A stretch of 64,000 nucleotides of DNA from Escherichia phage UE-S1: sequence record ON568341.1; one strand, given 5' to 3'. This document shows, one piece after another, positions 6,211 through 60,910 of this stretch. A program made the position numbers and the translations under genes. Positions within the stretch are counted from its first letter, which is position 1, and the number at the start of each line of letters is the position of its first letter. The notes under the pieces are model-generated. The model ran no database searches and was not told the DNA's origin. It saw nothing but the letters and a program-made list of their open reading frames with translations.

Positions 6211-6775
6211 TTTTTTTAAATGTTTAGTACACCCTATGCTGAGTGTTATGAAAAAATTACAGAATCTACCGGAAGACAACGATTACAAGTTTAATCGTTT
6301 TGATTCAGATGTATTTTGTATTGAAATTGAAATGAATAATAATCGTAATTTGCATTTAAAATTCAAAGAATCGTCAAGTCCGTATTACAACTTTGATATG
6401 AATTTTAAAATAGATACTGACATTGAAGAAAACGTAATATCAAATCATACTAGCAAAAATGGTTTTAAGCATAGAACTACTATGTACAATAATAAAAATA
6501 GTATTATATCTAAATGGTTTCACCAATTCACAAAAATTGGTGAAATTGAATATAGTGATTTTGGTGAAGAGCAATACTTTCAGTTGAGTACAATTCATGA
6601 ACTTCCACCATATGATTATGTTAAAACATGGTTTGATATTCATAATATAATTGATGATGCAATCAAACTTCCATTTGGGGTATCAATATCATATACTGCT
6701 CCTAAAACATTTGTTTTTACTGAAGATATGATTATGAAAAAGATATGGGCAATTATCCCACTTATGATGGATTAA
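6194..6775 (+). CDS. family-1 paralog
   Basis: 193 aa; GEEQYFQLSTI motif. Confidence 0.7.
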   Translation: MKITNDFFKCLVHPMLSVMKKLQNLPEDNDYKFNRFDSDVFCIEIEMNNNRNLHLKFKESSSPYYNFDMNFKIDTDIEENVISNHTSKNGFKHRTTMYNNKNSIISKWFHQFTKIGEIEYSDFGEEQYFQLSTIHELPPYDYVKTWFDIHNIIDDAIKLPFGVSISYTAPKTFVFTEDMIMKKIWAIIPLMMD

Positions 6776-6781
6776 ATTTAT

Positions 6782-6806
6782 ACCAGGGGTTGACTCTGGT
6801 ATTTTT
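6782..6806 (+). terminator. rho-independent terminator candidate
   Basis: Hairpin ACCAGGGGTTGACTCTGGT followed by TTTTT. Confidence 0.45.
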
Positions 6807-6836
6807 GTATGATACATTATCCTAAAGGAGAATTTT

Positions 6837-7388
6837 ATGAACTACAATCATGATCTTTTTACATTATGTGCATCAAAATGTGTTGATGGTTGGGCAGATA
6901 AAATCAATACCATAATTCATCGATATCTCGTCTTTAGTTCCCGTGCACGAAGTGAGGGGGCTATGGATTTCAAATATACACTATCTATTGATGGTGTAAC
7001 TATCCATGCAGACGAAGAACGTCTGAGCATTAATTTGTATGATTCCTGTGTATTTGCTATTCACCAAAAGATGGGGACAGGATGGGGTTGTAATAACATT
7101 AACTCCAAAGCTATCTTTTGGGTTGGTCACCATCAGACAGTACTTGATCCTTCAATTAAATCTAATCTTTTATCCGATAATATGGTTTATGATTTATTGT
7201 ACTCCGAAGAACAACATTTTCAATTAAGTACATTGCATGATCTGGCACAGTACGAGGATTGTTACAAAACATTAGAACTATGCCATTCCCTTGAACTCAA
7301 AGATAAATTGATACAAGTTTACCCTTCATTCTTTCATGAAGAAGTACAATGCACACTAGAACATATTTTATATGGGTACGACAAATGA
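6837..7388 (+). CDS. family-1 paralog
   Basis: 183 aa; RBS AAAGGAG upstream; SEEQHFQLSTL motif. Confidence 0.7.
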   Translation: MNYNHDLFTLCASKCVDGWADKINTIIHRYLVFSSRARSEGAMDFKYTLSIDGVTIHADEERLSINLYDSCVFAIHQKMGTGWGCNNINSKAIFWVGHHQTVLDPSIKSNLLSDNMVYDLLYSEEQHFQLSTLHDLAQYEDCYKTLELCHSLELKDKLIQVYPSFFHEEVQCTLEHILYGYDK

Positions 7389-17959: not shown

Positions 17960-18235
17960 ATGAATTATAAAGTTCTACAATATACATACAGTGTTTTGTT
18001 TGATTTACATCACAATGGAAGATATCTCAATACAATACGAGAAAACACATTTACTCATATGTTATGGATTGATTACTTAGAAACGATTCGTGCATATTTT
18101 GTTAATACTGAGATAATCATTCGTGGTAAAAAACAGAAGATTCAACATGTTAATAGTTATGGTGGTAAATTAACTCTAACATTTACCGATAATAATACTA
18201 ATGAAATGTGTTGTATCGAGTTGGTGAACATATGA
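17960..18235 (+). CDS. family-2 small paralog
   Basis: 91 aa; N-terminal MNYKVLQYTYSVLFDL pattern shared with downstream ORFs. Confidence 0.6.
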   Translation: MNYKVLQYTYSVLFDLHHNGRYLNTIRENTFTHMLWIDYLETIRAYFVNTEIIIRGKKQKIQHVNSYGGKLTLTFTDNNTNEMCCIELVNI

Positions 18236-18498
18236 ATTATAAAGATTTCCAATTAACATATAAGATTATTCGCAATCTAGCACACAACAATGATAGCCCT
18301 AGTCTAGAAGACACATGCACAGAAATGATCCATACGATTCGTGCAAAGATTGAAGAAAATTTCAGTACTGTTATTATTAATGATGACCATGCAGAATTTT
18401 CTGATATAATCATTAGACGTGATGGTAAAGTTGAGGTTCAGTACTACACTGATTTTGGATTTACAAGTGTACCGTTGGAGATATTCCCTTGGGATTAA
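18232..18498 (+). CDS. family-2 small paralog
   Basis: Track ORF 18208..18498; ATG at 18232 overlaps upstream stop; MNYKDFQLTYKII. Confidence 0.6.
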   Translation: MNYKDFQLTYKIIRNLAHNNDSPSLEDTCTEMIHTIRAKIEENFSTVIINDDHAEFSDIIIRRDGKVEVQYYTDFGFTSVPLEIFPWD

Positions 18499-18800
18499 AT
18501 TTAAATGATATACAATTCACTTATAAGGTACTATATGATTTGTATGATGCATACCTTGTTAGTAACAAAATAGGTTCACATAACCCAACCAAAGAACAAT
18601 CATTTATTGATTTATATATTGAGTACTTAGATTCTATTGAAAACTATCTCAAAAAGAATTACAGTACTTTTATCGATGGAAATGATACATTCGATTTCTA
18701 TGGTGTGCAATCATATGATGGTATAATCCATGTTCAATTTCAGGAAAGAACCGATAGGGAATTTATCGAAATTAAAGTTGTGAAGTTGGTGAATTTATAA
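18489..18800 (+). CDS. family-2 small paralog
   Basis: 103 aa, probable TTG start; LNDIQFTYKVLYDL. Confidence 0.55.
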   Translation: MGLNLNDIQFTYKVLYDLYDAYLVSNKIGSHNPTKEQSFIDLYIEYLDSIENYLKKNYSTFIDGNDTFDFYGVQSYDGIIHVQFQERTDREFIEIKVVKLVNL

Positions 18801-18810
18801 GAGGTTACAT

Positions 18811-19122
18811 ATGTTATTAAATGATATACAATTTACATACAAATTTTTGTATATCCAATTCGCAACGGTTGATGCTGGTCAATATATCTACAGTGAAGTT
18901 TATCGTTCGATATGGATAAAGTTTTTGGATGAATTACATGATTATTACCATGATTTGTGTATAGTTCGTGATAATAAAATATACAAATTCCGCGATATTG
19001 TTAGCCATAGCGGTAAGCTAAGATTGGAATTAAGTACTGATAAGGATGTTGATTGGATTGGTGTAAATTTACTGGAGTTGGAGAATGAAAAACAACTTAA
19101 AGGAAATACAAGTATTTTATAA
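18811..19122 (+). CDS. family-2 small paralog
   Basis: 103 aa; MLLNDIQFTYKFLY. Confidence 0.6.
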   Translation: MLLNDIQFTYKFLYIQFATVDAGQYIYSEVYRSIWIKFLDELHDYYHDLCIVRDNKIYKFRDIVSHSGKLRLELSTDKDVDWIGVNLLELENEKQLKGNTSIL

Positions 19123-19369
19123 ATTCTTATACTTATCATATGTAAAAGATGAGTATTATGAAAGTGTGTATTATTTTTTATGGCAACATTACCGTACTAT
19201 AGTAAGAGATTTATATATAGGAAAATCTATCATATCCAATGGTGAAAAATGTACCTGTACGGATGTAGTTAGTTTTAATGGTTCTTTAACACTGTGTTTC
19301 AGATGCGATAATAATAGTGGGTCATTTTCATTAAACGTATATCAGTTAGAAGGAATAAATTTTGAATAA
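19085..19369 (+). CDS. family-2 small paralog
   Basis: 94 aa; LKEIQVFYKFLYL. Confidence 0.55.
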   Translation: MKNNLKEIQVFYKFLYLSYVKDEYYESVYYFLWQHYRTIVRDLYIGKSIISNGEKCTCTDVVSFNGSLTLCFRCDNNSGSFSLNVYQLEGINFE

Positions 19370-19562
19370 ATGTCCATACTGTAACAGTACTCAATTAGCT
19401 CGTTTCCGTTTAGATTCAGACTGGGCGACTGGTGCTGGTGATTTCTTTCCTATTAATGATGATGCGGAATACACCGAAGAACAACTCAAAGATTTTGATA
19501 AATCATGGCGACCTGACATTGAGTGTATTTATTGCCTTAATTGTGAGCGTGTCCATGACTAA
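19362..19562 (+). CDS. small zinc-ribbon protein
   Basis: 66 aa; CPYCNS ... CIYCLNC paired CxxC motifs. Confidence 0.5.
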   Translation: MNKCPYCNSTQLARFRLDSDWATGAGDFFPINDDAEYTEEQLKDFDKSWRPDIECIYCLNCERVHD

Positions 19563-19818
19563 AGCTGAACTAATAGTTCATACATATAAAATGATATCAA
19601 GTACTGAGTCTTCGTATAGTGAAGATAATCCGGTACTGGATTATTTTGTTGAATTATTGAAAGAGCATTATATTGGTAAATCACTGATTCTCAATAATAT
19701 TAATTTCACGGTAAAGGATGTAGCACCTGGAAAAAACATACTAATAGTATGTGTTACTTCATCTGATAACCCAGTATACCCAATATCAATAATTTTTGAG
19801 ATATTAGGAGATTTATGA
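19555..19818 (+). CDS. family-2 small paralog
   Basis: Track ORF 19432..19818; ATG at 19555 overlaps upstream stop; HYIGKSLIL pattern. Confidence 0.55.
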   Translation: MTKAELIVHTYKMISSTESSYSEDNPVLDYFVELLKEHYIGKSLILNNINFTVKDVAPGKNILIVCVTSSDNPVYPISIIFEILGDL

Positions 19819-20105
19819 ATATCATTTTAATGCAGAAAACATATGCTATATTGGTGAAAGATTATTCCATTACTTTCGATTTACAAGAAAGTGCTCTGCA
19901 TAACCTATACAAAAACGTAACACAAGAATACAGAAATATGTTTTCTGACTTAGTAGTAGGAAGGTATTTCAGAACTAGAAAATACCCAAAACTTCAAATA
20001 GTTGATGTTTCTTTTTATTTCAATGGTCATATTACTATTCATAGTTTAGACCAAGATTCAACAACGTACTTAAACTTTTCATTTGATGAGGTAACATTTT
20101 TATGA
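19815..20105 (+). CDS. family-2 small paralog
   Basis: 96 aa; ATGA overlap. Confidence 0.55.
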   Translation: MNIILMQKTYAILVKDYSITFDLQESALHNLYKNVTQEYRNMFSDLVVGRYFRTRKYPKLQIVDVSFYFNGHITIHSLDQDSTTYLNFSFDEVTFL

Positions 20106-20278
20106 GAACAGTATTTTTTATCTGGAGTCTTTTTTCATTGGCAGTACTGACAGTATGTGGGATTTGTTTCCTTTCATCAATTAATACTTGGTATATCAAT
20201 TTACTATTTCCATTTGTCGGTGTTGGTTTAGGGTTTACTTTGCATAGTGTATGTAAGGATTACAATGAGAACAAATGA
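20102..20278 (+). CDS. small hydrophobic membrane peptide (58 aa), candidate
   Basis: ATGA overlap with upstream stop; MRTVFFIWSLFSLAVLTVCGICFL... two predicted TM segments; below track cutoff. Confidence 0.35.
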   Translation: MRTVFFIWSLFSLAVLTVCGICFLSSINTWYINLLFPFVGVGLGFTLHSVCKDYNENK

Positions 20279-20543
20279 AGTACTTATTGCTGAAACAATG
20301 AAGATGATTTACAATATCACGTCAGCACAGAATATGCCCTATCCAACTAAGTCTTTATTGAGGACTGTGTATCTGGGGATAGTACAGGAGTACTACAAAT
20401 CCAAGCACCTAAGCATTATTAGTGTTTATCGTGATTATGAAAGGATTCGTATTTTATTCTGGAACAAGAATCGAGTACGTTCTGAATGTGACCTAGTGGA
20501 CTTTAAATTAGAGAATCTTTATTGCTATAAACAGGGACAATAG
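20265..20543 (+). CDS. family-2-like small protein
   Basis: Track ORF 20247..20543 (GTG); ATG at 20265 with AAGGA RBS. Confidence 0.5.
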   Translation: MRTNEVLIAETMKMIYNITSAQNMPYPTKSLLRTVYLGIVQEYYKSKHLSIISVYRDYERIRILFWNKNRVRSECDLVDFKLENLYCYKQGQ

Positions 20544-20601
20544 TTTAATTCATGATATAATAATGGGTAAGGAACAATAATTAACACAAGGAGTGTGTGA
20601 A

Positions 20602-21330
20602 ATGCTTGACCGTATCCGTTTCGCTACAGAGATGGCGAATGAATTAAACATGGCAAATTTCCAAATGTTAACATCAGTAATGGCTGAACATGCATGTGCT
20701 TATTCTGTAAGTGGTGTGCAGTGTGGTCAGGAGAATATGTTAGCAGATGTTTATAGTGAAGTGCAAAGTAAGCAATATAGTGTAAAGACATATAAGGATA
20801 AGTTTGTTAGTCTTTATATGAACGAAGATATTGCCGAAGACCGTAAATTCACTGATTTTATTATTGAACGCCGAGTATCAGGTGTATCTAATCCTAATGC
20901 ATCAAGCGAGGAAGTTTTTGCAGAAGTACTGAAAGATATATACGAAAATGAATTAAAAAGTAAGAATCATTACAATGTACGTGAAACTAACACAGTGCTC
21001 TTGGGATATGATGAAGACGAAGAATACTATTATTTTCGTATGACTGAAGTTCCTTTTGAATACAAATCTCCATATACAACTACAGTGAAAGAATTTACTG
21101 AAAAAAGTAAAAACTTCATGAAGCATGAAGGAAATCGTTGTAGTATAAATGGTTATGACGAAAATGGCATTCACATTTATGAATGGGTTCACCCAAATTG
21201 TCAGACATACACTCGTTGCTTGAAAAAACGTTATAATTTAGAAGAGCATGAATCATTCTATTTTAAAGTTAAGAAGCAAGGTTATACTCGCCCCGCCGAT
21301 TCTGAATTGATGGGTATGATATATTTCTAA
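20602..21330 (+). CDS. hypothetical protein
   Basis: Track ORF 20593 (GTG); ATG at 20602 preceded by AAGGAG; 243 aa; TGATATAAT element upstream. Confidence 0.6.
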   Translation: MLDRIRFATEMANELNMANFQMLTSVMAEHACAYSVSGVQCGQENMLADVYSEVQSKQYSVKTYKDKFVSLYMNEDIAEDRKFTDFIIERRVSGVSNPNASSEEVFAEVLKDIYENELKSKNHYNVRETNTVLLGYDEDEEYYYFRMTEVPFEYKSPYTTTVKEFTEKSKNFMKHEGNRCSINGYDENGIHIYEWVHPNCQTYTRCLKKRYNLEEHESFYFKVKKQGYTRPADSELMGMIYF

Positions 21331-21340
21331 GGAAACTTCT

Positions 21341-21622
21341 ATGGATTTTTATCTACACACATGGACATACGAACAATATATTACATTATATCTTGAAATT
21401 ATTAACACAGAACCTAGGTGTGGTTGTTGGTTCGCAGATATCATAAAAGAGTATGCTGACGAGTTCGAGTTTGTGTATCTTGGGTCTGATATATTTGTAA
21501 AAAGTGTAGGTAAAACCGGACGAATCACTGATATAGATTACGACACTGTTAGTGTCAATTTCTATGTTGATTTTCCTGATGCTGGCGTTGATGGTGTATA
21601 TTGTCTTTATGAAATAATTTAA
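21341..21622 (+). CDS. hypothetical protein
   Basis: 93 aa ORF. Confidence 0.5.
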   Translation: MDFYLHTWTYEQYITLYLEIINTEPRCGCWFADIIKEYADEFEFVYLGSDIFVKSVGKTGRITDIDYDTVSVNFYVDFPDAGVDGVYCLYEII

Positions 21623-21630
21623 ATTCTTAG

Positions 21631-21654
21631 GCCAGCGTTTGCTGGTCTTTTTTC
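21631..21654 (+). terminator. rho-independent terminator candidate
   Basis: GCCAGCGTTTGCTGGT hairpin followed by T8. Confidence 0.5.
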
Positions 21655-21666
21655 GCAGGTACAAAG

Positions 21667-21969
21667 ATGTTCAGTATAGATTTAATTAACAGTACTATCA
21701 AAATGTTGGCTGATTTGGTGAGACAATCCAATGGAACTTTATATCCATCAATGTATAAAATGTTTGACCGATACATCAAGGATTGTAACATATCATTATA
21801 TGGACTTGCTGTTGATATAGACGATTACTATGGAATTAATACTTCATATGAAAGAGGAATTTTGATTGGTATTAATATAAAGATGGGATATTATCCTTAT
21901 TACTGTATAGGATTACCAGATAATACTTTTGTAGAATATCCAGCCAGTACTATTAAATTAAGAGGATAA
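21667..21969 (+). CDS. hypothetical protein
   Basis: 100 aa ORF. Confidence 0.5.
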   Translation: MFSIDLINSTIKMLADLVRQSNGTLYPSMYKMFDRYIKDCNISLYGLAVDIDDYYGINTSYERGILIGINIKMGYYPYYCIGLPDNTFVEYPASTIKLRG

Positions 21970-21976
21970 AACTAAA

Positions 21977-22555
21977 ATGAATGTATTAGAATTAAGTACT
22001 AAGCTGATTAGTATGCGTAATGAGTGGTACGATTGGTTTTATAATGGTACTGATATGGATTTTTCAAAATATCCATTTATGGAATCAGGATGTGATGCAA
22101 GATACCGCTGGTTGAGCAAAGATTGTTCTGGTTTACATATTCTAGTTGACGATAGTGGTCAGGGAATTATAAAAGATTTACTTCAAGTTGAACAACTCGT
22201 CCATGATAATTGGTGTGATAACGATCCATACCTTGGAAATATGATTTATGTAAGTGAAGATGATTGCATATTCGTTATCCAGCGTCATGGTAATTCTATG
22301 TTTTATGTAGCAGATAGCAGTACTCCAGAAGGTGCAGCAGCCGATGGACTTATGCCTAAGATTGATATATTGGAATTTGGATTACCTGAGCACTTCCAGA
22401 TTAGTACTTTATACGATATTCCACCACTTGAGTTCTTTGAAGAATTTAAATTGTACTACAATGATCTTCAAAAATTGAGTACTGATCGACGCATTGAAAT
22501 AACTGTTAAGTACATGGACGGAACGAAATTAACTGATACGGGGATAGAATTTTGA
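21977..22555 (+). CDS. family-1 paralog (dispersed copy)
   Basis: 192 aa; LPEHFQISTLY motif. Confidence 0.65.
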   Translation: MNVLELSTKLISMRNEWYDWFYNGTDMDFSKYPFMESGCDARYRWLSKDCSGLHILVDDSGQGIIKDLLQVEQLVHDNWCDNDPYLGNMIYVSEDDCIFVIQRHGNSMFYVADSSTPEGAAADGLMPKIDILEFGLPEHFQISTLYDIPPLEFFEEFKLYYNDLQKLSTDRRIEITVKYMDGTKLTDTGIEF

Positions 22556-23241
22556 TTAAAGATTTAGATAGAATTTTATATGTACTAAGGGGTGTAATTA
22601 CATTACATCCACAAATCAATCGAATTGAAAGTACATTTCAGTTGGAGTCAAGAGAAACTCCATATTCACATATATCAAATGTAGTTGGTTCACTCAGTAC
22701 TGAAGACTCGTCTTACGATATTTGTGTATGTGAAGTACAACCAAGTTCGGATCTTGGATTTGCTATTTTTGATAAAGATCAAAATCTCATTAGTATGTTT
22801 CAGTGCAATAATCCTTTTTGGAAAACATGCCTGTATCCAGAGTGGGCTATGCTTGATCCAACCAAGAGTACCATTAAAGTTTATGACTCTAAAAATGATG
22901 AAGTCGTTATTGATTTGGATGAGTCAATGTCAGAGGAAGAACACTTTCAGCTAATGATGATGCGTGCTATGCCGGAATACAATGCAATGATTAACACTGT
23001 GCAATACATTAAGGATACCATGCCAGCGTTGCGTACACATGAGTTTTGTCATCCGGTATTGTATGAACATCTAGATTTAGACTTCAGTACTATTAAATTT
23101 AAAGATAGTGTTAAAAAATATATTCAAGAGAATGTTAAATTTGATTTTATTAGTACTATGAACAATAATCCAAAAACTAATTTTAGGCATCAGTACAATG
23201 AATCTTTGTCTAATGGACGTGATACCAGTTGGTGGAAATAA
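22552..23241 (+). CDS. family-1 paralog (dispersed copy)
   Basis: 229 aa; SEEEHFQLMMM motif; ATGA overlap. Confidence 0.65.
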   Translation: MIKDLDRILYVLRGVITLHPQINRIESTFQLESRETPYSHISNVVGSLSTEDSSYDICVCEVQPSSDLGFAIFDKDQNLISMFQCNNPFWKTCLYPEWAMLDPTKSTIKVYDSKNDEVVIDLDESMSEEEHFQLMMMRAMPEYNAMINTVQYIKDTMPALRTHEFCHPVLYEHLDLDFSTIKFKDSVKKYIQENVKFDFISTMNNNPKTNFRHQYNESLSNGRDTSWWK

Positions 23242-23242
23242 T

Positions 23243-23506
23243 ATGAATATTCAAGATAGATTACAATTACTGTACACACTTGAACAGGCTGCTTATGATC
23301 TTGTTCGAAAAATCTCAGATGAACTACCTAAAGGAACTAAAGTTCGTGTACGTGAGATGAATTATTTTTCTGGAGTAATTGAAGAACAAGTACTAACAGT
23401 GAATAAAGTAACATACTATGAATCTGAGTTGTCTATTCAGTGTGAATCTGATGATGGATTAATATCATATTATGGAACTGATGTAGATATAGAGGTAATA
23501 AAATGA
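23243..23506 (+). CDS. family-2 small paralog
   Basis: Track ORF 23198..23506; ATG at 23243 just after upstream stop; LPKGTKVRV pattern. Confidence 0.55.
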   Translation: MNIQDRLQLLYTLEQAAYDLVRKISDELPKGTKVRVREMNYFSGVIEEQVLTVNKVTYYESELSIQCESDDGLISYYGTDVDIEVIK

Positions 23507-24645
23507 CCCTTTTGCAAATATATGAAGATTTAATGCACTTATGTAATACAAACGATGCATTCTTTTATGTGGATCATAAAAGTCCTGCTGGTGGCACGTA
23601 TCGTGTATTCAGTTATCGCCTAGCATCATACAATGATTTCATGCAACCAAATGCACTAGAAACCCGTGGCTCTATGTGGGAAATTGATGAAGAAGGTAAT
23701 ATGATTCGTTGTGCTGCTCGTACTATGAAAAAGTTCTTCAATGCTTACGAGAATCCTGCTACAATGTTCCCTGCTAACACCACATGCGATGACATTGCGG
23801 TAGTGATGCCTAAATTAGATGGTTCAGTGATCAGTACTTACCGTGATAATGATGGTGAGATTCGTTGTAAATCACATACTGCATTGTATTCTGACCATGC
23901 GATTAACAGTACTCGACTTATTAACGAAAACCAGAATTTGTATCAGTACATCGACGAAGCTGAACGTTTAGGTTACACAGTTAATATGGAGTATACAAGC
24001 CCAGAGTACCGAATTGTATTACCATATCAGGTAGAACAACTGTTTGTATTGAACGTTCGTCATCGTGTGAGTGGTGAGTTGCTATGTGGTAAAGCACTAC
24101 GTGATAAGTTTCCATGTCTTGCACAGTACAGCACTAACATGACAGGCCAAGATATTCATCACACTTTTCCTGTACGAAATACATTCCGTGAAAGTGTTGA
24201 TGAAGTTCATAAAATGCTTGATATTGAGGGGTTTGTGTGCATCTTAAATAATGGGACAATGTGTAAAATAAAGACTGACTGGTACAGTTCATTACATCTT
24301 ACAAAAGATAGTATTATTATTGATTCTCATTTATATGAAGCTGTATTAAATGGTTCAAGTGATGATTTAAAACAATTGTTCAGTACTGATGAATATGCTA
24401 TGCAAAAGATATTAAGAATGGAACAGTTGGTTTTTTCGTGCTATAATGCATTACAAGATGAAGTAGAAAGCTTCGTCAATGAACACAAGCACTTAGAGCG
24501 AAAGGAATTCGCATTGAAGGTTCAGTCGTGTTTATCTAGTGAACTGAATCGTCAGGGCTTGGCATTTGCAATGTATAATAATAAGAAAGTTGATTATAAA
24601 GATACTCTTATCAAATACATGAAAATTATACTAAAAGATTTTTAG
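23503..24645 (+). CDS. rnlA: RNA ligase 1 (T4 RnlA-like)
   Basis: 380 aa; N-terminal region and KLDG adenylation motif align by eye with recalled T4 Rnl1 (FFY.D..S..G.TYR.FSY..ASY.D...P.ALE.RG.MF). Confidence 0.85.
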   Translation: MTLLQIYEDLMHLCNTNDAFFYVDHKSPAGGTYRVFSYRLASYNDFMQPNALETRGSMWEIDEEGNMIRCAARTMKKFFNAYENPATMFPANTTCDDIAVVMPKLDGSVISTYRDNDGEIRCKSHTALYSDHAINSTRLINENQNLYQYIDEAERLGYTVNMEYTSPEYRIVLPYQVEQLFVLNVRHRVSGELLCGKALRDKFPCLAQYSTNMTGQDIHHTFPVRNTFRESVDEVHKMLDIEGFVCILNNGTMCKIKTDWYSSLHLTKDSIIIDSHLYEAVLNGSSDDLKQLFSTDEYAMQKILRMEQLVFSCYNALQDEVESFVNEHKHLERKEFALKVQSCLSSELNRQGLAFAMYNNKKVDYKDTLIKYMKIILKDF

Positions 24646-24675
24646 TACTAACTAGCCTAAGCACAAGGAGAAGTG

Positions 24676-24930
24676 ATGGCTAAACCTAAGTATAAAAATG
24701 ACGGTTCCCTTTCTCCAACTGAGTTCAGGAAAATACAACAAGAAATCGATGAATTACAGCACAAACGCTCAATGAAAGGTGTGAAGATAAGTAAGAAGAG
24801 AATCGAGAATACTTTCGGATGTAGTAGTACTGAATATAAGAAGAAAAGGAAACCGAAGGGTGTTAAGCCGAGAATACATGATGTAACTCGCTATACATCA
24901 AAACGTGAAAATAAATTTGATCCACTATAA
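24676..24930 (+). CDS. small Lys/Arg-rich protein
   Basis: Track ORF 24673 (GTG); ATG at 24676 after AAGGAG; MAKPKYKND... highly basic. Confidence 0.5.
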   Translation: MAKPKYKNDGSLSPTEFRKIQQEIDELQHKRSMKGVKISKKRIENTFGCSSTEYKKKRKPKGVKPRIHDVTRYTSKRENKFDPL

Positions 24931-24939
24931 GGAGTTCAT

Positions 24940-25170
24940 ATGAAAGTTGAAGTTCAGCATAGTATTGTTCAAGATATGTCTGTAGTTAAATTTCTTTCAT
25001 TAAAAGATTACTTTAGATGTATCAAGTTCCTAGAAGAATCTCATTTAAAATGGACTCCATTAAAGTACAGTTCATCCAAAGACACTGCTAGTATTCGTTG
25101 TGATGAAGCTGTACTCGTAAAAATCTCTAAAAGATTTGGGATAGGTAAAGTGAATGAGCACAGTAAATGA
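24940..25170 (+). CDS. hypothetical small protein
   Basis: 76 aa ORF with GGAG RBS. Confidence 0.5.
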   Translation: MKVEVQHSIVQDMSVVKFLSLKDYFRCIKFLEESHLKWTPLKYSSSKDTASIRCDEAVLVKISKRFGIGKVNEHSK

Positions 25171-25408
25171 ACTAAAATACTACAACAAAATTGCGGATAC
25201 GTTTATTACTCATTTATATGAAGAATTCAGTAGTATCCGCAAGGAATATACAGGTAAATGTATTTTATATAGTTCTTATCTTAGTGGAAGAATTGAACGT
25301 GCTTACATTACTAAAGTGAAGTTTTCTGATGATTATCAATTACTATTTGAATTGGATGATTGTTTAGTCATTGAAGCTGATTTAATAGTAGATGTGCTGA
25401 ACAATTGA
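25154..25408 (+). CDS. family-2 small paralog
   Basis: 84 aa; IRKEYTGKCILY pattern. Confidence 0.55.
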   Translation: MSTVNELKYYNKIADTFITHLYEEFSSIRKEYTGKCILYSSYLSGRIERAYITKVKFSDDYQLLFELDDCLVIEADLIVDVLNN

Positions 25409-25414
25409 GGACAT

Positions 25415-25729
25415 ATGAATAAAGAACTTGCATATAAGGGTATCGAAAAGCTAAAGTTCGTTGAAAAGGAACTAATAGAATCAGTTGAAACAATGGTTGA
25501 AGATTACGTTTTTGATTTTAAGAAAACATTAATTGGATGTAAAGTCAAATGCTGGGATCATACCATTAGAGAATGGTTCAGTGCTATAATTCTTGATGTT
25601 AAAGTATCTCGAACTGGTATTGGTAACTTAGTAAATGGTGAATGCTTTGTATACACTGAATACAATAACGGTACAAGACACCTTTCAAAAGGATGGCACA
25701 ATCTCGAAGATGTAGAATTCATTGAGTAA
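25415..25729 (+). CDS. family-2-like small protein
   Basis: 104 aa; KTLIGCKVKCW pattern. Confidence 0.5.
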   Translation: MNKELAYKGIEKLKFVEKELIESVETMVEDYVFDFKKTLIGCKVKCWDHTIREWFSAIILDVKVSRTGIGNLVNGECFVYTEYNNGTRHLSKGWHNLEDVEFIE

Positions 25730-25741
25730 CAAGGAGTAATA

Positions 25742-26674
25742 ATGCCAACTATCACCTTAACAATTGGGTTGCCTGGGTGTGGTAAAACTACATGGGCAGT
25801 GCAAGAGATTAAAAACGCCAAATCTAAGACTATCAACATCAACCGTGATGATATTCGTGAATCTATGGCGGGGTCACATGATGCTTACAAATTCAACGAT
25901 GCTAATGAGCAGTACGTAACTACTTTACAGTTCAGTGCAGCAAATTTAGCAGCAGAGAATGGTTGGAACATCATCATATCCGATACGAACCTTAAACAAC
26001 ATTTCCGTGATCTCTGGAAAGTATGGGCTAAAGATAATGATTATGATTACAAAGAAAAGAACTTCTATGATGATTTTGTACCTAATGAAGACCGTGGTGC
26101 AGATGTTCATGAATTCTTTAAGATTAAAGAGTTCGTAAAACTTTGTAAGAAATATAACCGCCAGCGTGAGCGTTCAGTACAAGATAATATCATTGATACG
26201 ATGGCAGATACTTACTATTATAGTAAAGCAATGCACATTGGTTACTATGGTAATTCAAGAGAAGCCTCTGTTATCGTTGATATCGACGGAACTCTTGCTC
26301 ATAAATGGGGTCGTAATCCTTACGATGAAAGTACTGTACTACAAGATACACCAGATGAAGAAGTTATTTTGTCTATTATCGCTGAAGCAGTTTTCCATAA
26401 ACGTAAGATTATTGTAATGAGTGGGCGTACTGAAGGGTGTCGTGCAGACACAGAACAGTGGCTTAAGAATTGGGGTGTTCCTTACGATGCATTGTTTATG
26501 CGAGGCATCGATGATAAACGACCCGATGATGTGGTAAAATATGAGTTGTATATGAATAACGTCGTGCATCATTACGATGTTAAAAAAGTATACGATGACA
26601 GATCACAAGTCGTATTCATGTGGCGTAAACTACTTGGATTAAAAGTGATGCAAGTTGCAGAAGGAAATTTCTGA
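25742..26674 (+). CDS. pseT: polynucleotide 5'-kinase / 3'-phosphatase (T4 PseT-like)
   Basis: 310 aa; N-terminal P-loop ITLTIGLPGCGKTTWA; HAD phosphatase motif VDIDGTLA; C-terminal DDR.QVV.MWR as in recalled T4 Pnk. Confidence 0.9.
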   Translation: MPTITLTIGLPGCGKTTWAVQEIKNAKSKTININRDDIRESMAGSHDAYKFNDANEQYVTTLQFSAANLAAENGWNIIISDTNLKQHFRDLWKVWAKDNDYDYKEKNFYDDFVPNEDRGADVHEFFKIKEFVKLCKKYNRQRERSVQDNIIDTMADTYYYSKAMHIGYYGNSREASVIVDIDGTLAHKWGRNPYDESTVLQDTPDEEVILSIIAEAVFHKRKIIVMSGRTEGCRADTEQWLKNWGVPYDALFMRGIDDKRPDDVVKYELYMNNVVHHYDVKKVYDDRSQVVFMWRKLLGLKVMQVAEGNF

Positions 26675-26681
26675 CACAAAA

Positions 26682-26706
26682 GGGATCAATGTATGATCCC
26701 TTTTTC
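26682..26706 (+). terminator. rho-independent terminator
   Basis: GGGATCAATGTATGATCCC hairpin followed by TTTTTC. Confidence 0.6.
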
Positions 26707-26723
26707 TTTTAAGGTATATTATA

Positions 26724-26900
26724 ATGAATGTAAAAACACAGATGTTATTACAAAAAGAATACTTAGAAAATATAGAAATGTTCTATAGATTGTCTTTATA
26801 CGAAAATAAACATAAAAAATATAACTTTTCTAAACAACTAACCACAAGTACTAATGATTATCTATTTTCATCAATGTTTTATGTGAGAGGTTTATTATAA
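26724..26900 (+). CDS. small hypothetical protein (58 aa), candidate
   Basis: ATG-led ORF whose TAA overlaps next ATG (TAATG); below track cutoff. Confidence 0.3.
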   Translation: MNVKTQMLLQKEYLENIEMFYRLSLYENKHKKYNFSKQLTTSTNDYLFSSMFYVRGLL

Positions 26901-27157
26901 TGGATAAATTTCACACAGATATAACACAGATAGGTAATCTTATCAATAGTCTAATTACTGATTTAGAAGAAAAGTACTTAGGTCGAAATGTATACGTTGA
27001 AATGTATGAAACATATGGTGTTATTGATATGATTTATTACAGTGCATTGAAGTGTGAAATACGTTTAACAGTATGTTTGTTTGAAAAAGATACATTCAAC
27101 AGAAGTACTGCAATTCGTCAGGTTGGTGTAGATGACATTGAATTATATGAGGAATAA
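26900..27157 (+). CDS. family-2 small paralog
   Basis: 85 aa; LEEKYLGRNVYV pattern. Confidence 0.55.
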   Translation: MDKFHTDITQIGNLINSLITDLEEKYLGRNVYVEMYETYGVIDMIYYSALKCEIRLTVCLFEKDTFNRSTAIRQVGVDDIELYEE

Positions 27158-27411
27158 TGATGTTTGAACAGGACGTAGAGCTATTCAAAAGACATATTGA
27201 ATATTTGACTGTTTTAGAGAATGATTTAACCACAAAATACAAAGGAATTAGAGTCCAGTGTTGGTATGATGACTGGGATTATAAAAGGGAACTTACTATT
27301 GACCGAATTTATTTCAGTGATGGTGTACTGAATGTACATGGTGTAAATGATTTTGGTCATTCATATACATATTCTAATAATGCTAAATTTAAAAGGATCT
27401 GCAATGAATGA
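27157..27411 (+). CDS. family-2 small paralog
   Basis: 84 aa; LTTKYKGIRVQ pattern. Confidence 0.55.
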   Translation: MMFEQDVELFKRHIEYLTVLENDLTTKYKGIRVQCWYDDWDYKRELTIDRIYFSDGVLNVHGVNDFGHSYTYSNNAKFKRICNE

Positions 27412-29645: not shown

Positions 29646-29861
29646 ATGATAACATTTTTCGCAATATATGGATTTGTAACATTTGTTACATTTATAACCA
29701 ACTTTTTAGTACTTAATTGGGGTTGTTTTAAAGATGAAATCATGATTGCCATGAATCTCCAAACAGCAGCACTAATGGCTATTATTTGGCCTGTAACGTT
29801 AGTATACCTTTTTATTTCACTTACTCAAGATATTATTAACAAATATAAGAGAAAGAACTAA
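29646..29861 (+). CDS. small membrane protein
   Basis: 71 aa, two hydrophobic segments. Confidence 0.5.
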   Translation: MITFFAIYGFVTFVTFITNFLVLNWGCFKDEIMIAMNLQTAALMAIIWPVTLVYLFISLTQDIINKYKRKN

Positions 29862-30118
29862 TGTTCAAAACCGACTTATCACATTTTCGATATCTTAGGT
29901 CTTTGGCTGATGATTTTATAAATGATCTTAAGCCAAAATATATTGGTCAAGAAGTACGATTAATAAACTCCAGAGGGTATGGAAAGTATATTATAACGGA
30001 TATGTATATTAGTGCTGGTGAGTGGTGTTTTAAAATTAACACTTATCTTAAAGATGGTTCTTTTGCTGGAACACAAGTTACTAAACATACTAATATTATA
30101 TGGTTGGAGCAACAATGA
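29861..30118 (+). CDS. family-2 small paralog
   Basis: 85 aa; LKPKYIGQEVRL pattern. Confidence 0.55.
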   Translation: MFKTDLSHFRYLRSLADDFINDLKPKYIGQEVRLINSRGYGKYIITDMYISAGEWCFKINTYLKDGSFAGTQVTKHTNIIWLEQQ

Positions 30119-30858
30119 AACACTTTTTAGAAGTAACCGTGCCTGATGATAAAGATTTATATATTGTAGGTGATTTGCATGGTAATGGTAAACTATGGGA
30201 TGCTACAGTAAAAGAATTTGGTATTACACACAATGATTATGTTTTCAGTGTAGGTGATGTTATCGACCGTGGAGAACAAAATTCAAAGCTCCTTTTTGAA
30301 TTTTTGTTCGGTGAAAATCGTTACATGATTGCTGGTAATCATGAGATGATGTGTGTTGATTCTGAAACACTTCGAGATTGGTATCATTGTTGGATAAGTA
30401 ATGGTGGTGATAAATTCCTTGATGAAGTTGGAGGGACAGGTATTCAATTCTTTCGTCAGTACTTGAAAGATTTACCTATGATTATCCAAATCAACCATAG
30501 AGGCTTGAAGATCGGGTTAGTTCATGCTGGAGTTCCTTTGGAATATACAACATGGGAACGATTTGTTAATGGGACAAAATCACTTAGTGCTGATATAGTT
30601 GATAAGTGCTTGTGGGATAGGAAAACATTCGATTATTGTAGGACAAATAATACTTATTATGCACCTAAGTTAGATGGAGTGCATTGTGTCTTTAGTGGAC
30701 ATACAGCAGTTACTGAACCACTCATTTATGGCAATCGCATTTGGATTGATAGTCAGTTCTTGACGGGTGACTTAACTCTCGCTACTCCACAAAGTGGTGG
30801 GATGAGATACTTACGTAAAGAAAAAGATGAGTACTCATTCAGTCGTTTCAAAAGGTAA
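30115..30858 (+). CDS. Ser/Thr protein phosphatase, PPP / calcineurin-like metallophosphatase
   Basis: Track ORF 30100; ATG at 30115; GDLHGN, GDVIDRG and GNHE motifs. Confidence 0.8.
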   Translation: MKHFLEVTVPDDKDLYIVGDLHGNGKLWDATVKEFGITHNDYVFSVGDVIDRGEQNSKLLFEFLFGENRYMIAGNHEMMCVDSETLRDWYHCWISNGGDKFLDEVGGTGIQFFRQYLKDLPMIIQINHRGLKIGLVHAGVPLEYTTWERFVNGTKSLSADIVDKCLWDRKTFDYCRTNNTYYAPKLDGVHCVFSGHTAVTEPLIYGNRIWIDSQFLTGDLTLATPQSGGMRYLRKEKDEYSFSRFKR

Positions 30859-31143: not shown

Positions 31144-31371
31144 ATGAAAGTAATTCAAGTTATGGTAGAAAAATACCAAACTGAAGATGGTCGTATTTTT
31201 GATTCAGCTAAACAAGCTGAACATCATGAACGTATTATTTCGGGTACACGTAAAGTGTGTCCTACATGTAATGGAACACAACAAGTGCCGTCAGAAGATT
31301 ACCGCAGCTTTTATGCTTGTCCATACTGTGATGGGAAAGGCTATGTAGAAAAACAAGAGGTATGGAAATGA
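31144..31371 (+). CDS. small zinc-ribbon protein
   Basis: 75 aa; CPTCNG ... CPYCDGKG. Confidence 0.5.
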   Translation: MKVIQVMVEKYQTEDGRIFDSAKQAEHHERIISGTRKVCPTCNGTQQVPSEDYRSFYACPYCDGKGYVEKQEVWK

Positions 31372-31781
31372 AATTGTATTGCTTAACTAATATGTACTGT
31401 CAAGGTGTCCAAGCTGGTATTCAAGCATTTCATGCTGGTGTTAAACTAATCAAAGAATATGAAGGTACTGCTTTCAGTACTATGATTGATGAATGGTATA
31501 ATGAGCACGAAACTATTGTAGTACTAAATGCGGGTGGACATGATAAATTAAATTCTTATTATAAAGACCTTAACAAACAGGGAACAGTTCCGTTTGCCAA
31601 ATTCAATGAAGCTGGATTGAATGATGCTATTACATGTATCGCAGTACTGTGTACATCTGAAATGATTGAAGACATGGCTGTTATGCGTATGAATCTTCCT
31701 GCTGGTGATCAGCTAATGCAAGTGAAATATGGTGCATTGTTTGACACACTTAAAGCAATCAGTACGATGAGGACAATTTGA
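31362..31781 (+). CDS. hypothetical protein
   Basis: 139 aa ORF. Confidence 0.55.
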   Translation: MEMKLYCLTNMYCQGVQAGIQAFHAGVKLIKEYEGTAFSTMIDEWYNEHETIVVLNAGGHDKLNSYYKDLNKQGTVPFAKFNEAGLNDAITCIAVLCTSEMIEDMAVMRMNLPAGDQLMQVKYGALFDTLKAISTMRTI

Positions 31782-32991: not shown

Positions 32992-34413
32992 ATGAGCATT
33001 TTAGCAATTCTTGAAAGCATTAAAAATACTAGCAGTACTCTGGGTAAAAAAGCTATCCTTGAACAAAACAAAGATAACCAAACATTACAAAAAGTACTGA
33101 AATATACACTAGACCCTTCAATTGTAAGTGGGTATAAAAAGCTACCACAAGCTGATGATGTCTACCAACATATGACATTAGATGAAGCAATTGATAAGCT
33201 AGAATGCATTTACAAACGTGGTGTAACCGGAAATGCTGGACGTGACTTTATTGCTTCAGTACTGGGTTCTGTATCTGAAGATGATCAGGAAGTTCTACGA
33301 AGAATGCTCACTAAGAACCTTGATTGTGGTATTCAAGAAAAGAACTGCAATGATGTGTTCGGGAAAGGTTTTATCAAAGACGAACCATACATGCGTTGTT
33401 CTTTGATTGACAAAAAGACTGCAAAGAACATTAACTTCAAAGATTATGGTTATGCTATATCAGAAGTGAAAATGGATGGTCAGTACTTGAACCACGTTGT
33501 CATTAATGGTTCATTAACTTCTACATCCCGTAATGGTAAACTATACGACTTCCTGGGTTGTCGTGATGGTGAGATGGCAGGTCTTGCTCACATCATCCAA
33601 AGTAAAGATGAACGTTTTAGTAGTGGTGTAGTCTTTATGGGTGAAGGTGTAGTACTGGACAATGATGGAGAAACCATTCTCCCACGCACTACTGGCAATG
33701 GTATAATTCAGAAAGCTGGAAAAGATAGTATCAGTCAGAATGAAGCAATGCGTACTGTATTTGTTCTATGGGATGTTGTTCCATATGATGCATTTTGTGA
33801 AGGTGTATGGGATGTAAAACGTAAAGAACGTCGCGAGATCTTAGTAGATGCAATTAACGAACTCAGTAGTGATTTTGTTCGTATGGTTGGATTCCGTAAA
33901 GTTCTAAACATCAAAGAAGCATTTGAGTACAATAGTGAACTAATGAACGAAGGTGAAGAGGGTTCAGTACTGAAATGTGAAGATGGTATCTGGAAATCTC
34001 ACACTTCTCCTAAGCAATTGAAAATGAAACTTAAAATGCAATTGGACTTGCGTATTGTTGGTTTCAATGAAGGTGAAGGTAAGCGTAAAGGTAGCCTTGG
34101 TTCTTTACAACTGGAAAGTGCTTGTGGTACATTGAAAGTTAATGTAGGTACTGGAATTAAAGAGAAAGACGCAGAATGGACGTTTAAAACCATTTGGGAA
34201 AGAATGCAAGAACTCATTGGTCAAGTAGTAACCGTGCAGTGCAATGATATAGTGTATGATCAGCGTACTGGCGAACCATCACTATTTTTACCTGTGTTTA
34301 TTGAATTTAGATTTGACAAAAACACTTGTGACGACTATACTCGTATCTTAGAAATTCGTGATAGTGCTGTTGAAGTTTTTAGTAATGCTATCATAAAATC
34401 GTTAACTAACTAA
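32992..34413 (+). CDS. ATP-dependent DNA ligase (T4 gp30-like)
   Basis: 473 aa; N-terminus ILAILESIKNTSSTLGKKAILEQNKDN matches recalled T4 ligase; adenylation motif KMDGQ. Confidence 0.85.
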   Translation: MSILAILESIKNTSSTLGKKAILEQNKDNQTLQKVLKYTLDPSIVSGYKKLPQADDVYQHMTLDEAIDKLECIYKRGVTGNAGRDFIASVLGSVSEDDQEVLRRMLTKNLDCGIQEKNCNDVFGKGFIKDEPYMRCSLIDKKTAKNINFKDYGYAISEVKMDGQYLNHVVINGSLTSTSRNGKLYDFLGCRDGEMAGLAHIIQSKDERFSSGVVFMGEGVVLDNDGETILPRTTGNGIIQKAGKDSISQNEAMRTVFVLWDVVPYDAFCEGVWDVKRKERREILVDAINELSSDFVRMVGFRKVLNIKEAFEYNSELMNEGEEGSVLKCEDGIWKSHTSPKQLKMKLKMQLDLRIVGFNEGEGKRKGSLGSLQLESACGTLKVNVGTGIKEKDAEWTFKTIWERMQELIGQVVTVQCNDIVYDQRTGEPSLFLPVFIEFRFDKNTCDDYTRILEIRDSAVEVFSNAIIKSLTN

Positions 34414-34424
34414 AAAAGAATAAT

Positions 34425-35495
34425 ATGTATACTATTGATGATGAAATAATTAATAATAAATTTATTTCTGATACATACAATGCATATGATATATCTAAAA
34501 TAATTCTCAAGGAAAAGTATCCTCAATTTGATTGGGATACTATTGACCTTGAGAATTTAAAAACTGATGATTATTGTAAAAATGACATTATTGGATATAT
34601 ACAAGATAAAAAAAATATAAAATTGTATGGCATTAAATGTGAAAAATGCTCCCAAAATTACAAACTAAATGGTCTAGGGATATATTTTTCATATAAAGGA
34701 AATTTAGTTAAGGGTAAGTGTCCATGTAATTGTAGTAAGCATAAATTCTACACAAAATATCAAAATATTTTTTTGATTAATGAAAAAGCAAAAACGTTAA
34801 ATTATATTTTTTGTGGTTTTGTTGATGAGTATAAAGGTAAAAATAAAACAAAAATAAAATTATATTGTCCAAATAACAAACATGGTATATGGGATACAAC
34901 ATTAATATATAGTTTTATAGAATCAAACAATGGATGTATTAAATGTGCACATGAATCAGTCGGGTTAAGTAATAGTATAACTTTCGCAGATCATATAAAA
35001 GATTTTTTATCAACTGGTAAGTATAATAAAAATACAAAATTTTGGAAATCTAATAAGATTGACAGTAGAGGATATAATAATTATTGGTTTTGCCAATGTC
35101 CAATATGTAAAACTACAGTTGAGGCATCTACTACAAATCTTAAAAGTGGGAAAGTATCATGTTTATGTAACGGGAACACCCAGCAACAGGGATATATAAA
35201 TTTAGTACTTGACAATGATATACCAATTGCATTAAAATATGGAATAACATCTAATACAGAAGTCAGAGAAAAAACACAAAATCGCAATTCAATCTATGAT
35301 ATTGTAAACTGTGGTGTCTGGGAGTTTGAATCTTCTTTGTTATGTAAATCAGCAGAAGCGGAATGTAAAAGAACTTTCTCACCAGTACTTGAAGCTCGTG
35401 AAATGAAAGATGGATATACTGAAACTACATCACCATTAGATATTGACAAAATCATTGAAATATATGAAAATTGGGGTGGTGTGCGAATAAAATAA
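34425..35495 (+). CDS. Cys-rich zinc-ribbon protein with possible GIY-YIG-like C-terminal domain
   Basis: 356 aa; repeated CxxC / CxC pairs; C-terminal GYINLV...KYGITSN resembles GIY...YIG spacing. Confidence 0.4.
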   Translation: MYTIDDEIINNKFISDTYNAYDISKIILKEKYPQFDWDTIDLENLKTDDYCKNDIIGYIQDKKNIKLYGIKCEKCSQNYKLNGLGIYFSYKGNLVKGKCPCNCSKHKFYTKYQNIFLINEKAKTLNYIFCGFVDEYKGKNKTKIKLYCPNNKHGIWDTTLIYSFIESNNGCIKCAHESVGLSNSITFADHIKDFLSTGKYNKNTKFWKSNKIDSRGYNNYWFCQCPICKTTVEASTTNLKSGKVSCLCNGNTQQQGYINLVLDNDIPIALKYGITSNTEVREKTQNRNSIYDIVNCGVWEFESSLLCKSAEAECKRTFSPVLEAREMKDGYTETTSPLDIDKIIEIYENWGGVRIK

Positions 35496-35507: not shown

Positions 35508-36299
35508 ATGAAATTTGTTGTAACGTCAGACGTACACGGTGGCACTGATTACCTCCATAGTGGTGATTACAGTGATACAGTACTGTTCATTGCTGGAGAC
35601 TTCGATGAAGTTAAACGCAGTCGTTACCGTACTGGTATCGAATCACTATGTAAGCAGTTCAAAAATGTAGTGCTGGTTCCTGGCAATCACGAATACTATG
35701 GTTCTAATATCCACAAAACGCATAAAGTTCTATCTGACATGCAAGATGAGATTCCCAATTTCATCTTTTTGCAAAACAAATTTGTATGGCTGGATGGGGT
35801 ACTTCTTGTTGGTAGTACTCTGTGGACAGACTTCGATAAAGGTAACTCTTTGACTAAGTTTGATGCTCGTCAAAAGATGAATGATTATAAACATATCCGT
35901 CATGGAACAACATCCGAGCCTTGGCGTAAGAAGTTGACACCAGATGATACGGAGTTCATGCATTATAAAGATAAACAATTTATTAAAAATTCTATTGACA
36001 CGGCTCGCTTTATGCATGATAATGATTTCAAGGTAATTGTGATTACACATCACGCACCAAGTTATCAAAGTGTTTCACCAAAATATAAAAATGATTCCCT
36101 GAATGGCTGTTACTGTTCAGATATGGATCAGTACATTGAAGATTTGGGTGCTGATATTTGGATTCATGGTCATGTTCATAGTAGCTTTGACTACCACATT
36201 GGTAAGACACGTATCATTTGTAATCCACGAGGCTATGAATCGTACAGTGGTGCTTGTGAGAATTTTGATTACAATCCTAAATTAGTATTTGAAATTTAA
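35508..36299 (+). CDS. metallophosphoesterase (calcineurin-like)
   Basis: 263 aa; SDVHGG, GDFDE, GNHEYY, HHAP, GHVH motifs. Confidence 0.7.
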   Translation: MKFVVTSDVHGGTDYLHSGDYSDTVLFIAGDFDEVKRSRYRTGIESLCKQFKNVVLVPGNHEYYGSNIHKTHKVLSDMQDEIPNFIFLQNKFVWLDGVLLVGSTLWTDFDKGNSLTKFDARQKMNDYKHIRHGTTSEPWRKKLTPDDTEFMHYKDKQFIKNSIDTARFMHDNDFKVIVITHHAPSYQSVSPKYKNDSLNGCYCSDMDQYIEDLGADIWIHGHVHSSFDYHIGKTRIICNPRGYESYSGACENFDYNPKLVFEI

Positions 36300-44295: not shown

Positions 44296-44304
44296 GGATT
44301 GCGT

Positions 44305-60293: not shown

Positions 60294-60304
60294 AGGATTA
60301 TACA

Positions 60305-60892: not shown

Positions 60893-60910
60893 ATTAAGGA
60901 AAAGAAAAAA

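Follow-up and report, generated by a model that had tools for sequence, protein, structure and literature searches.

The DNA analysed here is a stretch of 64,000 nucleotides from Escherichia phage UE-S1 (sequence record ON568341.1), called the window at its full length, and the system in question is a block of genes for an RNA ligase of the T4 Rnl1 type (rnlA) and a polynucleotide kinase/phosphatase of the T4 Pnkp type (pseT), which an earlier note had read, from the letters alone, as a tRNA repair pair. The window shows 93-95% nucleotide identity to the genomes of the Asteriusvirus phages 121Q, PBECO4, G17, phAPEC6, E9.1 and slurp01, a genus of E. coli and Salmonella jumbo phages of ~350 kb whose records already annotate an RNA ligase (RnlA) and a polynucleotide kinase (PseT). 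The orthologues found at the same locus in 121Q, PBECO4, G17, phAPEC6 and E9.1 share 93-97% amino-acid identity with the enzymes described here. Compared with these relatives, the window carries an allele of its own of the module, 90-96% identical in nucleotides over the module's length. Identity to E9.1/G17 is ~100% over positions ~20000-23500; the start codon of rnlA is the exact point at which it falls to 90-96%, and this drop indicates recombination with a breakpoint at the repair module's 5′ edge.

The rnlA-pseT block and its two enzymes

A scan for open reading frames (ORFs) delimits the repair module to positions 23503-26674 (3172 bp), with six tightly packed ORFs on the plus strand (Table 1). 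It runs from the ATG of an ORF of 380 amino acids (aa) to the last base of a 310-aa ORF, stop codon included, so the span given in the earlier note is exact, from the start of the first gene to the stop of the last. The genes rnlA and pseT lie 1.1 kb apart on the same strand, separated by four small ORFs. A Shine-Dalgarno-like sequence is present 5′ of each of these four and of the 310-aa ORF, and the ORF that precedes the 380-aa one overlaps it with its stop codon. A terminator-like hairpin follows pseT and another one lies upstream of the module; between the two hairpins there are ten same-strand genes, namely four ORFs, rnlA, the four small ORFs and, in the last place, pseT. The upstream hairpin is likely the 5′ limit of this unit and the downstream one its 3′ end, which would leave rnlA and pseT within one apparent transcription unit. 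The record of phage G17 annotates the equivalent of the downstream hairpin as a terminator, and a hairpin with a U-run is also found directly 3′ of pseT in Alcyoneusvirus, Eneladusvirus, both Mimasvirus examples and PBECO4. The stem sequences differ among them, so that it is the position of this putative terminator that is conserved, not its sequence.

Table 1. Genes, motifs and hairpins of the rnlA-pseT block. Identity across genera refers to the comparison with four loci described in the text; dN/dS is the ratio of non-synonymous to synonymous substitution rates against phage G17.
Feature	Position	Strand	Remarks	Identity across genera	dN/dS
245-aa ORF, upstream	20593-21330		PHROG 16105	64-66%	
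Upstream terminator-like hairpin	21629-21648	+	pattern match only		
rnlA, Rnl1-family ATP-dependent RNA ligase, 380 aa	23503-24645	+	family, structure, residue mapping	57-64%	0.10
Ligase motif I, K104-L-D-G107	23812-23823	+	aligns with T4 K99-E-D101-G102		
Ligase motif Ia, K123-S-H125	23869-23877	+	T4 reads K-S-K		
Ligase motif IV, E242-G243	24226-24231	+	T4 E227-G228		
Ligase motif V, K255-x-K257	24265-24273	+	T4 K240, K242		
Ligase C-terminal helical domain, aa 268-379	24304-24639	+	Pfam T4_Rnl1_C		
Basic 84-aa protein	24676-24930	+	PHROG 15306; 85 aa if the GTG at 24673 is used	57-61%	0.03
76-aa protein	24940-25170	+	PHROG 14730; PHROG match, cross-genus comparison	68-70%	0.05
Acidic 84-aa ORF	25154-25408	+	ORF scan; without PHROG match; lineage-specific filler		0.19
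104-aa ORF	25415-25729	+	PHROG 31355; Asteriusvirus only		0.18
pseT, bifunctional polynucleotide 5′-kinase/3′-phosphatase, 310 aa	25742-26674	+	family, structure, residue mapping	56-64%	0.085
Kinase P-loop, G9-LPGCGK-T16	25766-25789	+	includes K15		
Kinase general base, D36	25847-25849	+	T4 Asp35		
Kinase clade-specific insertion, ~20 aa (aa ~111-131)	26072-26134	+	kinase domain, relative to T4 Pnkp		
Kinase lid, R142	26165-26167	+	T4 R126		
Phosphatase DxDGT, D180-I-D-G-T184	26279-26293	+	T4 D165, D167, T169		
Intrinsic-terminator-like hairpin	26678-26704	+	11-bp stem then U-run; 4 nt past the pseT stop; -14.1 kcal/mol		

The presence of both enzymes, as the earlier note had claimed, is borne out by matches to Pfam, PHROG, NCBIfam and Protein Data Bank (PDB) entries. 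The 380-aa protein matches the Pfam families RNA_lig_T4_1 (E-value 8.7e-15) and T4_Rnl1_C (E 1.2e-16) as well as PHROG 562 (E 5e-108), scores above the cut-off of the NCBIfam equivalog TIGR02308 (294.3 against 242.25 bits), and aligns with the sequence of the T4 Rnl1 structure 2c5u (E 9e-57), with 38% identity to T4 Rnl1. In a family alignment of 82 sequences, T4 included, the T4 residues Y37, R54, K75, F77, K99, D101, G102, E159, E227, G228, K240, K242, Y246 and D272 are invariant, and every one of them is present in the ligase of the window. The motif I column thus reads KxDG in 82 of 82 homologues, the invariant glutamate of motif III (T4 E159) is E163, and the residues of the Rnl1-specific N-terminal subdomain are R55, K77 and F79; their T4 equivalents R54, K75 and F77 contact ATP, Arg54 and Lys75 being essential (PMC6379707). 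An AlphaFold2 (AF2) model, built on an alignment of 81 homologues, has a mean predicted local distance difference test (pLDDT) score of 93.5 and places helices at residues 259-376, and its best PDB match in Foldseek is T4 Rnl1 (2c5u, E 1.9e-32) over the full length, the high root-mean-square deviation (rmsd) between both being due to a different orientation of the domains. Like T4 Rnl1 (RnlA, gp63; PDB 2c5u, 5tt6), the protein is a nucleotidyltransferase with the Rnl1-specific N-terminal subdomain and a helical C domain, carries the same motifs I, III, IV and V, and is encoded upstream of pseT in the same orientation, whereas its segment between motifs III and IV is ~10 residues longer and its C-terminus ~12 residues shorter. 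The PDB entry 9do4, considered as a possible complex with a partner, was rejected, as it corresponds to T4 Rnl1 with ATP and Mg. Homologues of the ligase occur in 1643 of 50,697 phage records.

In the case of the 310-aa protein, the matches are to Pfam AAA_33 (E 4e-13) and HAD_PNKP (E 1.2e-43), to PHROG 505 (E 1.3e-93) and to the T4 Pnkp structure 1ltq (E 1.8e-37), with 38% identity to T4 Pnkp. A family alignment of 70 sequences, T4 included, shows conservation of the T4 residues K15, S/T16, D35, R38, R126, D165, D167, T169, R176, S211, R213, D254, K258, D277 and D278, all of them present in the protein of the window. In its kinase domain R39 stands for T4 Arg38, whereas the phosphatase domain keeps the ligands S227, K266, D285 and D286, together with R191, R229 and D262; the roles of Lys15, Asp35, Arg126, Asp165, Asp167, Ser211, Lys258 and Asp278 in T4 Pnkp have been described (PMC3592404). 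An apparent loss of the lid arginine, with T4 R126 placed on Q141 in the pairwise comparison, turned out to be an alignment artefact, since the family alignment gives R142, in a column with Arg in 69 of 70 sequences. The AF2 model (alignment of 69 homologues, mean pLDDT 93.6) consists of an N-terminal kinase and a C-terminal HAD phosphatase domain, and Foldseek again retrieves the T4 enzyme as the best PDB match (1ltq, E 5e-25, template modelling score 0.76-0.79, rmsd 3.6 Å). Relative to T4 Pnkp (PseT; PDB 1ltq, 2ia5), with which it shares the P-loop kinase, the DxDGT phosphatase and all the catalytic residues, the protein differs in having Tyr138 in place of T4 R122 and an insertion of ~20 aa in the kinase domain, modelled as a loop and an N-terminal extension of a helix, which is common to the clade of Rak2-like jumbo phages. 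Kinase-phosphatase homologues are found in 2376 of 50,697 phage records.

The homology check proposed in the earlier note therefore gave a consistent picture for both enzymes, each ~38% identical to its T4 counterpart and with a predicted fold that matches the T4 crystal structure. The three motifs which that note had singled out for alignment, the ligase KxDG, the kinase P-loop and the phosphatase DxDGT, are all intact, and both genes are under purifying selection (Table 1). Altogether, the two proteins genuinely belong to the families of T4 Rnl1 and T4 Pnkp and are apparently active.

The linkage of both genes is also shared with T4, where the order is rnlA, alc, pseT.3, pseT.2, pseT.1 and pseT, that is, the same polarity with four intervening genes. 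However, the intervening ORFs of the window are unrelated to those of T4: a phmmer search (--max, database of eight sequences) for homologues of alc, pseT.1, pseT.2 and pseT.3 was negative, with all E-values above 0.01. The pair rnlA-pseT is linked in the T4 order in Alcyoneusvirus, Eneladusvirus, Mimasvirus and a T4-like phage of Acinetobacter, and in a mycobacteriophage the ligase and kinase genes are linked in the reversed order. A more distant parallel is the bacterial Pnkp1-Rnl-Hen1 system (PDB 4xrp), which contains a homologue of the kinase-phosphatase (E 3.4e-30) and follows the same logic of healing before sealing (PMC4411300). In contrast, its ligase belongs to another clade, and Hen1 immunises the repaired junction by 2′-O-methylation; no Hen1-like gene was identified adjoining the module, whose four intervening ORFs match no Pfam family.

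The small ORFs between the enzymes

The 24 ORFs of the window located at 20.5-30.9 kb were compared by tblastn with module-centred loci of ~7-11 kb from four other genera, represented by the phages Klebsiella KP13-7, Yersinia fHe-Yen9-04, Cronobacter GAP32 and Xanthomonas XbC2, a comparison that for the ORFs at the downstream end is bounded by the extent of those loci. Only five of the 24 have a recognisable counterpart in three or all four of these loci: the two enzymes, the basic 84-aa protein, the 76-aa protein and an upstream 245-aa ORF (Table 1). Two others were matched in the longer Klebsiella locus alone (30100-30858, with 62% identity, and 26724-26900, with 33%). The 245-aa ORF is the only other gene near the module that is conserved in all four loci, always 1-2 kb upstream of rnlA. 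It was suspected to be a nucleotidyltransferase of the RlaP type, and it has been left unassigned, with neither a Pfam match nor a PDB sequence match.

The basic 84-aa protein, preceded by an AAGGAG motif 5 nt upstream of its ATG, keeps its place directly 3′ of rnlA in Eneladusvirus and in Mimasvirus, with 57-61% identity, and its conservation in Alcyoneusvirus is weaker; a Klebsiella counterpart, which is not among the tblastn matches, was detected by phmmer only (E 9e-6). The 76-aa protein is found in 70 phage records, all of them of Rak2-like jumbo phages and always between rnlA and pseT, and across genera it is better conserved (68-70%) than either enzyme (56-64%). Its ORF overlaps with its 3′ end the pseT start codon in Eneladusvirus and Mimasvirus. 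A word-indexed search of large protein collections retrieved 32 clusters of this protein at 90% identity, all of 70-96 aa and without fusions, whereas a profile search of 1.84 billion representatives gave three true clusters (50% identity), all of them small jumbo-phage proteins; the remaining profile matches, in short multiple stretches to large proteins, were taken as spurious. The 76-aa protein has no Pfam or NCBIfam match, its best hit in a PDB sequence profile search has an E-value of 0.54, and no paralogue of it was found in the window by BLASTP or phmmer. On the other hand, the acidic 84-aa ORF and the 104-aa ORF occur in Asteriusvirus only, the former being absent from PBECO4-type genomes.

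The earlier note had described the intervening ORFs as "family-2" and basic. The second term fits the 84-aa protein that follows rnlA, with 24 Lys and Arg in 85 aa and an isoelectric point of 10.2, whereas the first one has a weak basis: an iterated profile built from the ORFs at 26900, 27157 and 29861 reaches the acidic 84-aa and 104-aa ORFs at E ~0.04-0.05. All-against-all BLASTP and phmmer comparisons gave no link between the intervening ORFs and the neighbouring small ORFs, with shuffle z-scores of 4.1 or below, and the paralogy of the acidic 84-aa and 104-aa ORFs with the neighbouring small-ORF family is unproven. The latter is itself a weak family of ~85-aa ORFs, located at 26900-27411 and 29861-30118.

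Of the ~22 ORFs other than the enzymes, three are conserved, and two of these fall into the four slots between rnlA and pseT, a placement with p ~0.07, which makes the association of the basic 84-aa and 76-aa proteins with the repair module suggestive, not proven. In five genera or more, both have kept their place between the two enzyme genes, whereas almost none of the other small ORFs nearby has escaped replacement. It is conceivable on these grounds, if rather unlikely, that the two proteins are dedicated accessory subunits of a jumbo-phage Rnl1-Pnkp repair pathway, where they might provide an adaptor that binds tRNA, couple the kinase-phosphatase to the ligase, or inhibit an anticodon nuclease directly.

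Other features of the window

Past the module, at 31362-31781 and 4.7 kb from pseT, an ORF shows similarity to PTH2-like peptidyl-tRNA hydrolases (Pfam E 4e-6; PHROG 3668 "hydrolase"), another function of the translation-rescue type near the module. A 356-aa ORF with CapR homology domains (34425-35495; Pfam E 5e-16; PHROG 681 "endonuclease") sits between a T4-like DNA ligase gene (32992-34413) and a metallophosphoesterase gene (35508-36299); since it is absent from the same site in phage E9.1, it is probably a mobile endonuclease insertion. The only large gene of the window on the minus strand (40282-42183) encodes a 633-aa protein with six Big_2 Ig-like repeats, in whose place E9.1 has only a 126-aa "virion structural protein", so this region is variable. 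Several paralogous sets were also detected: six tandem small ORFs at 17960-19818, a family of ~190 aa in three copies (6194-7388 and 21977-22555), and, at 57594-63643, three ORFs related to one another (899, 195 and 910 aa), the two large ones without a Pfam match. Finally, the window encodes a SIR2-family protein adjoining a Nudt16-like Nudix hydrolase (44299-45605), a PIN-PhoH fusion (46295-47734) and a protein with a C-terminal WGR domain (49981-50952); a survey of jumbo phages ties SIR2 and Nudix domains to NAD+/ADP-ribose conflict systems (PMC7824862).

A probable tRNA repair pathway and its alternatives

Very probably, the ligase and the kinase-phosphatase make up an active pathway of the T4 type that heals and seals RNA ends. 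This pathway would start with a host ribonuclease cutting the anticodon loop of a tRNA, which would leave one end with a 2′,3′-cyclic phosphate and the other with a 5′-OH. In the 310-aa protein, the DxDGT phosphatase domain at the C-terminus would remove the cyclic or 3′-phosphate, and the P-loop kinase domain at the N-terminus would phosphorylate the 5′-OH. The 380-aa ligase, after self-adenylylation on Lys104, would then pass the AMP to the 5′-phosphate and join both ends, steered to tRNA anticodon loops by its C-terminal helical domain. The resealed tRNA would restore translation, and abortive-infection defences acting through tRNA cleavage would be defeated. Heal-and-seal repair of tRNA, as read in the earlier note, is the best-supported view of the locus because of the family membership of the enzymes, their same-strand block and the retained C domain of the ligase, which in T4 Rnl1 gives specificity for the tRNA anticodon loop (PMC6379707). 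From these features we infer that the enzymes are active, that tRNA is their substrate, that the host has such a nuclease and which one it would be. The further prediction of that note, of tRNA-targeting defences on the side of the hosts, is reasonable in the light of T4 biology and of the known E. coli anticodon nucleases; the nuclease could be PrrC, some other HEPN nuclease or a tRNase of the colicin type, among others. In T4, the Stp peptide activates the EcoprrI-PrrC anticodon nuclease.

Several points weigh against a tRNA repair function. The activity of the Asteriusvirus enzymes is deduced from sequences and models, and the 64-kb window has neither tRNA or tmRNA genes nor any Rfam family at its gathering score. 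The PADLOC defence models gave no match among ten ORFs (the six of the module and four others), and no Stp-like trigger turned up in the window, where no search was aimed at one. We infer the host-side partner entirely, because no tRNA gene, trigger or anticodon-nuclease-related element was found in the window. With regard to the enzymes themselves, the kinase domain has its clade-specific insertion of ~20 aa, and motif Ia of the ligase, which keeps S124 (T4 S118), has His125 at the position of T4 Lys119, a residue reportedly needed for RNA-adenylylation by T4 Rnl1. This column holds K in 37, H in 30, N in 8 and Q in 7 of the 82 homologues, so that more than half of them lack the lysine; histidine is typical of the jumbo-phage clade, and the lysine located two residues before (T4 K117, here K123) is invariant across the family. 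A further role of T4 Rnl1, independent of ligation, is in the attachment of tail fibres.

This last role opens an alternative, in which the enzymes are active in general nucleic-acid end processing, or serve a structural purpose, and have no part in counter-defence: the kinase-phosphatase would tidy up the ends of DNA or RNA while replication or the breakdown of the host genome is under way, and the ligase would be a tail-fibre chaperone like T4 gp63. PHROG 562 and many records indeed bear the name "RNA ligase and tail fiber protein attachment catalyst", genes of DNA metabolism such as the T4-like DNA ligase, two metallophosphoesterases and a Dam methylase lie in the neighbourhood, and DNA ends are a substrate of T4 Pnkp in vitro (PDB 1rc8/1rrc, complexes with single-stranded DNA). 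However, gp63 is not known to attach tail fibres other than the long ones of the T4 type, such a role would not be expected a priori in a Rak2-like virion, and a purely structural role would not need the strict conservation of all the ligase catalytic residues. The retention of the tRNA-specifying C domain (PMC6379707) and the linkage of ligase and kinase in very different phage groups, which points to a joint action on one substrate, also argue against this alternative, and make it improbable. That one or both genes are decaying relics without activity is extremely unlikely: the His in place of T4 Lys119 and the 20-aa insertion in the kinase domain could be taken as signs of decay, but both changes are common to the whole jumbo-phage clade, all the other catalytic residues are intact, dN/dS is ~0.09-0.10, and the reading frames are complete in 35 of 35 related records and in four further genera.

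A different alternative keeps RNA repair and changes the damage to be repaired, which would not be the PrrC-type cleavage of tRNALys, but that caused by other ribotoxins that produce 2′,3′-cyclic phosphates and 5′-OH groups (tRNases of the colicin E5/D type, toxin-antitoxin endoribonucleases, Cas13 through collateral cleavage), or else damage to tRNAs other than tRNALys or to rRNA; the small conserved ORFs might then adapt the system to its target. E. coli has many tRNA-targeting systems besides PrrC (PMC12409363, PMC10264068, PMC11042736), and the varied combinations of RNA ligases in jumbo phages have been read as a specialisation for different RNases (PMC7824862). The ligase, being just 38% identical to T4 Rnl1 and changed in motif Ia, and the clade-specific accessory ORFs between the enzymes would fit this idea. 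On the other hand, sequence does not discriminate among nuclease targets, and the closest characterised enzymes are those of T4, with PrrC-cut tRNALys as their physiological substrate; damage of another kind has a rather slim chance. In any case, this alternative refines the proposed T4-type repair pathway and does not contradict it.

The identification of the repair pair in the window is correct, already known and common. The phAPEC6 paper proposes that both genes counter the Prr anticodon-nuclease system (PMC7247149), and a 2021 survey of 224 jumbo phages describes the combination of Rnl1/Rnl2 ligases with PNK-HAD kinase-phosphatases as an adaptation for RNA repair that is common among them (PMC7824862). 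The analysis confirms an intact T4-style tRNA repair kit in Asteriusvirus, and this core finding adds nothing to the annotation or the literature; the conserved pair of small proteins is the sole part that goes beyond existing annotation and has forward value. Should these proteins turn out to help in repair or in evading the nuclease, a pathway under study since the 1980s would gain new components. The repair kit itself is relevant for predicting that E. coli strains relying on anticodon nucleases may fail to exclude such phages, for instance when host range is considered in phage therapy.

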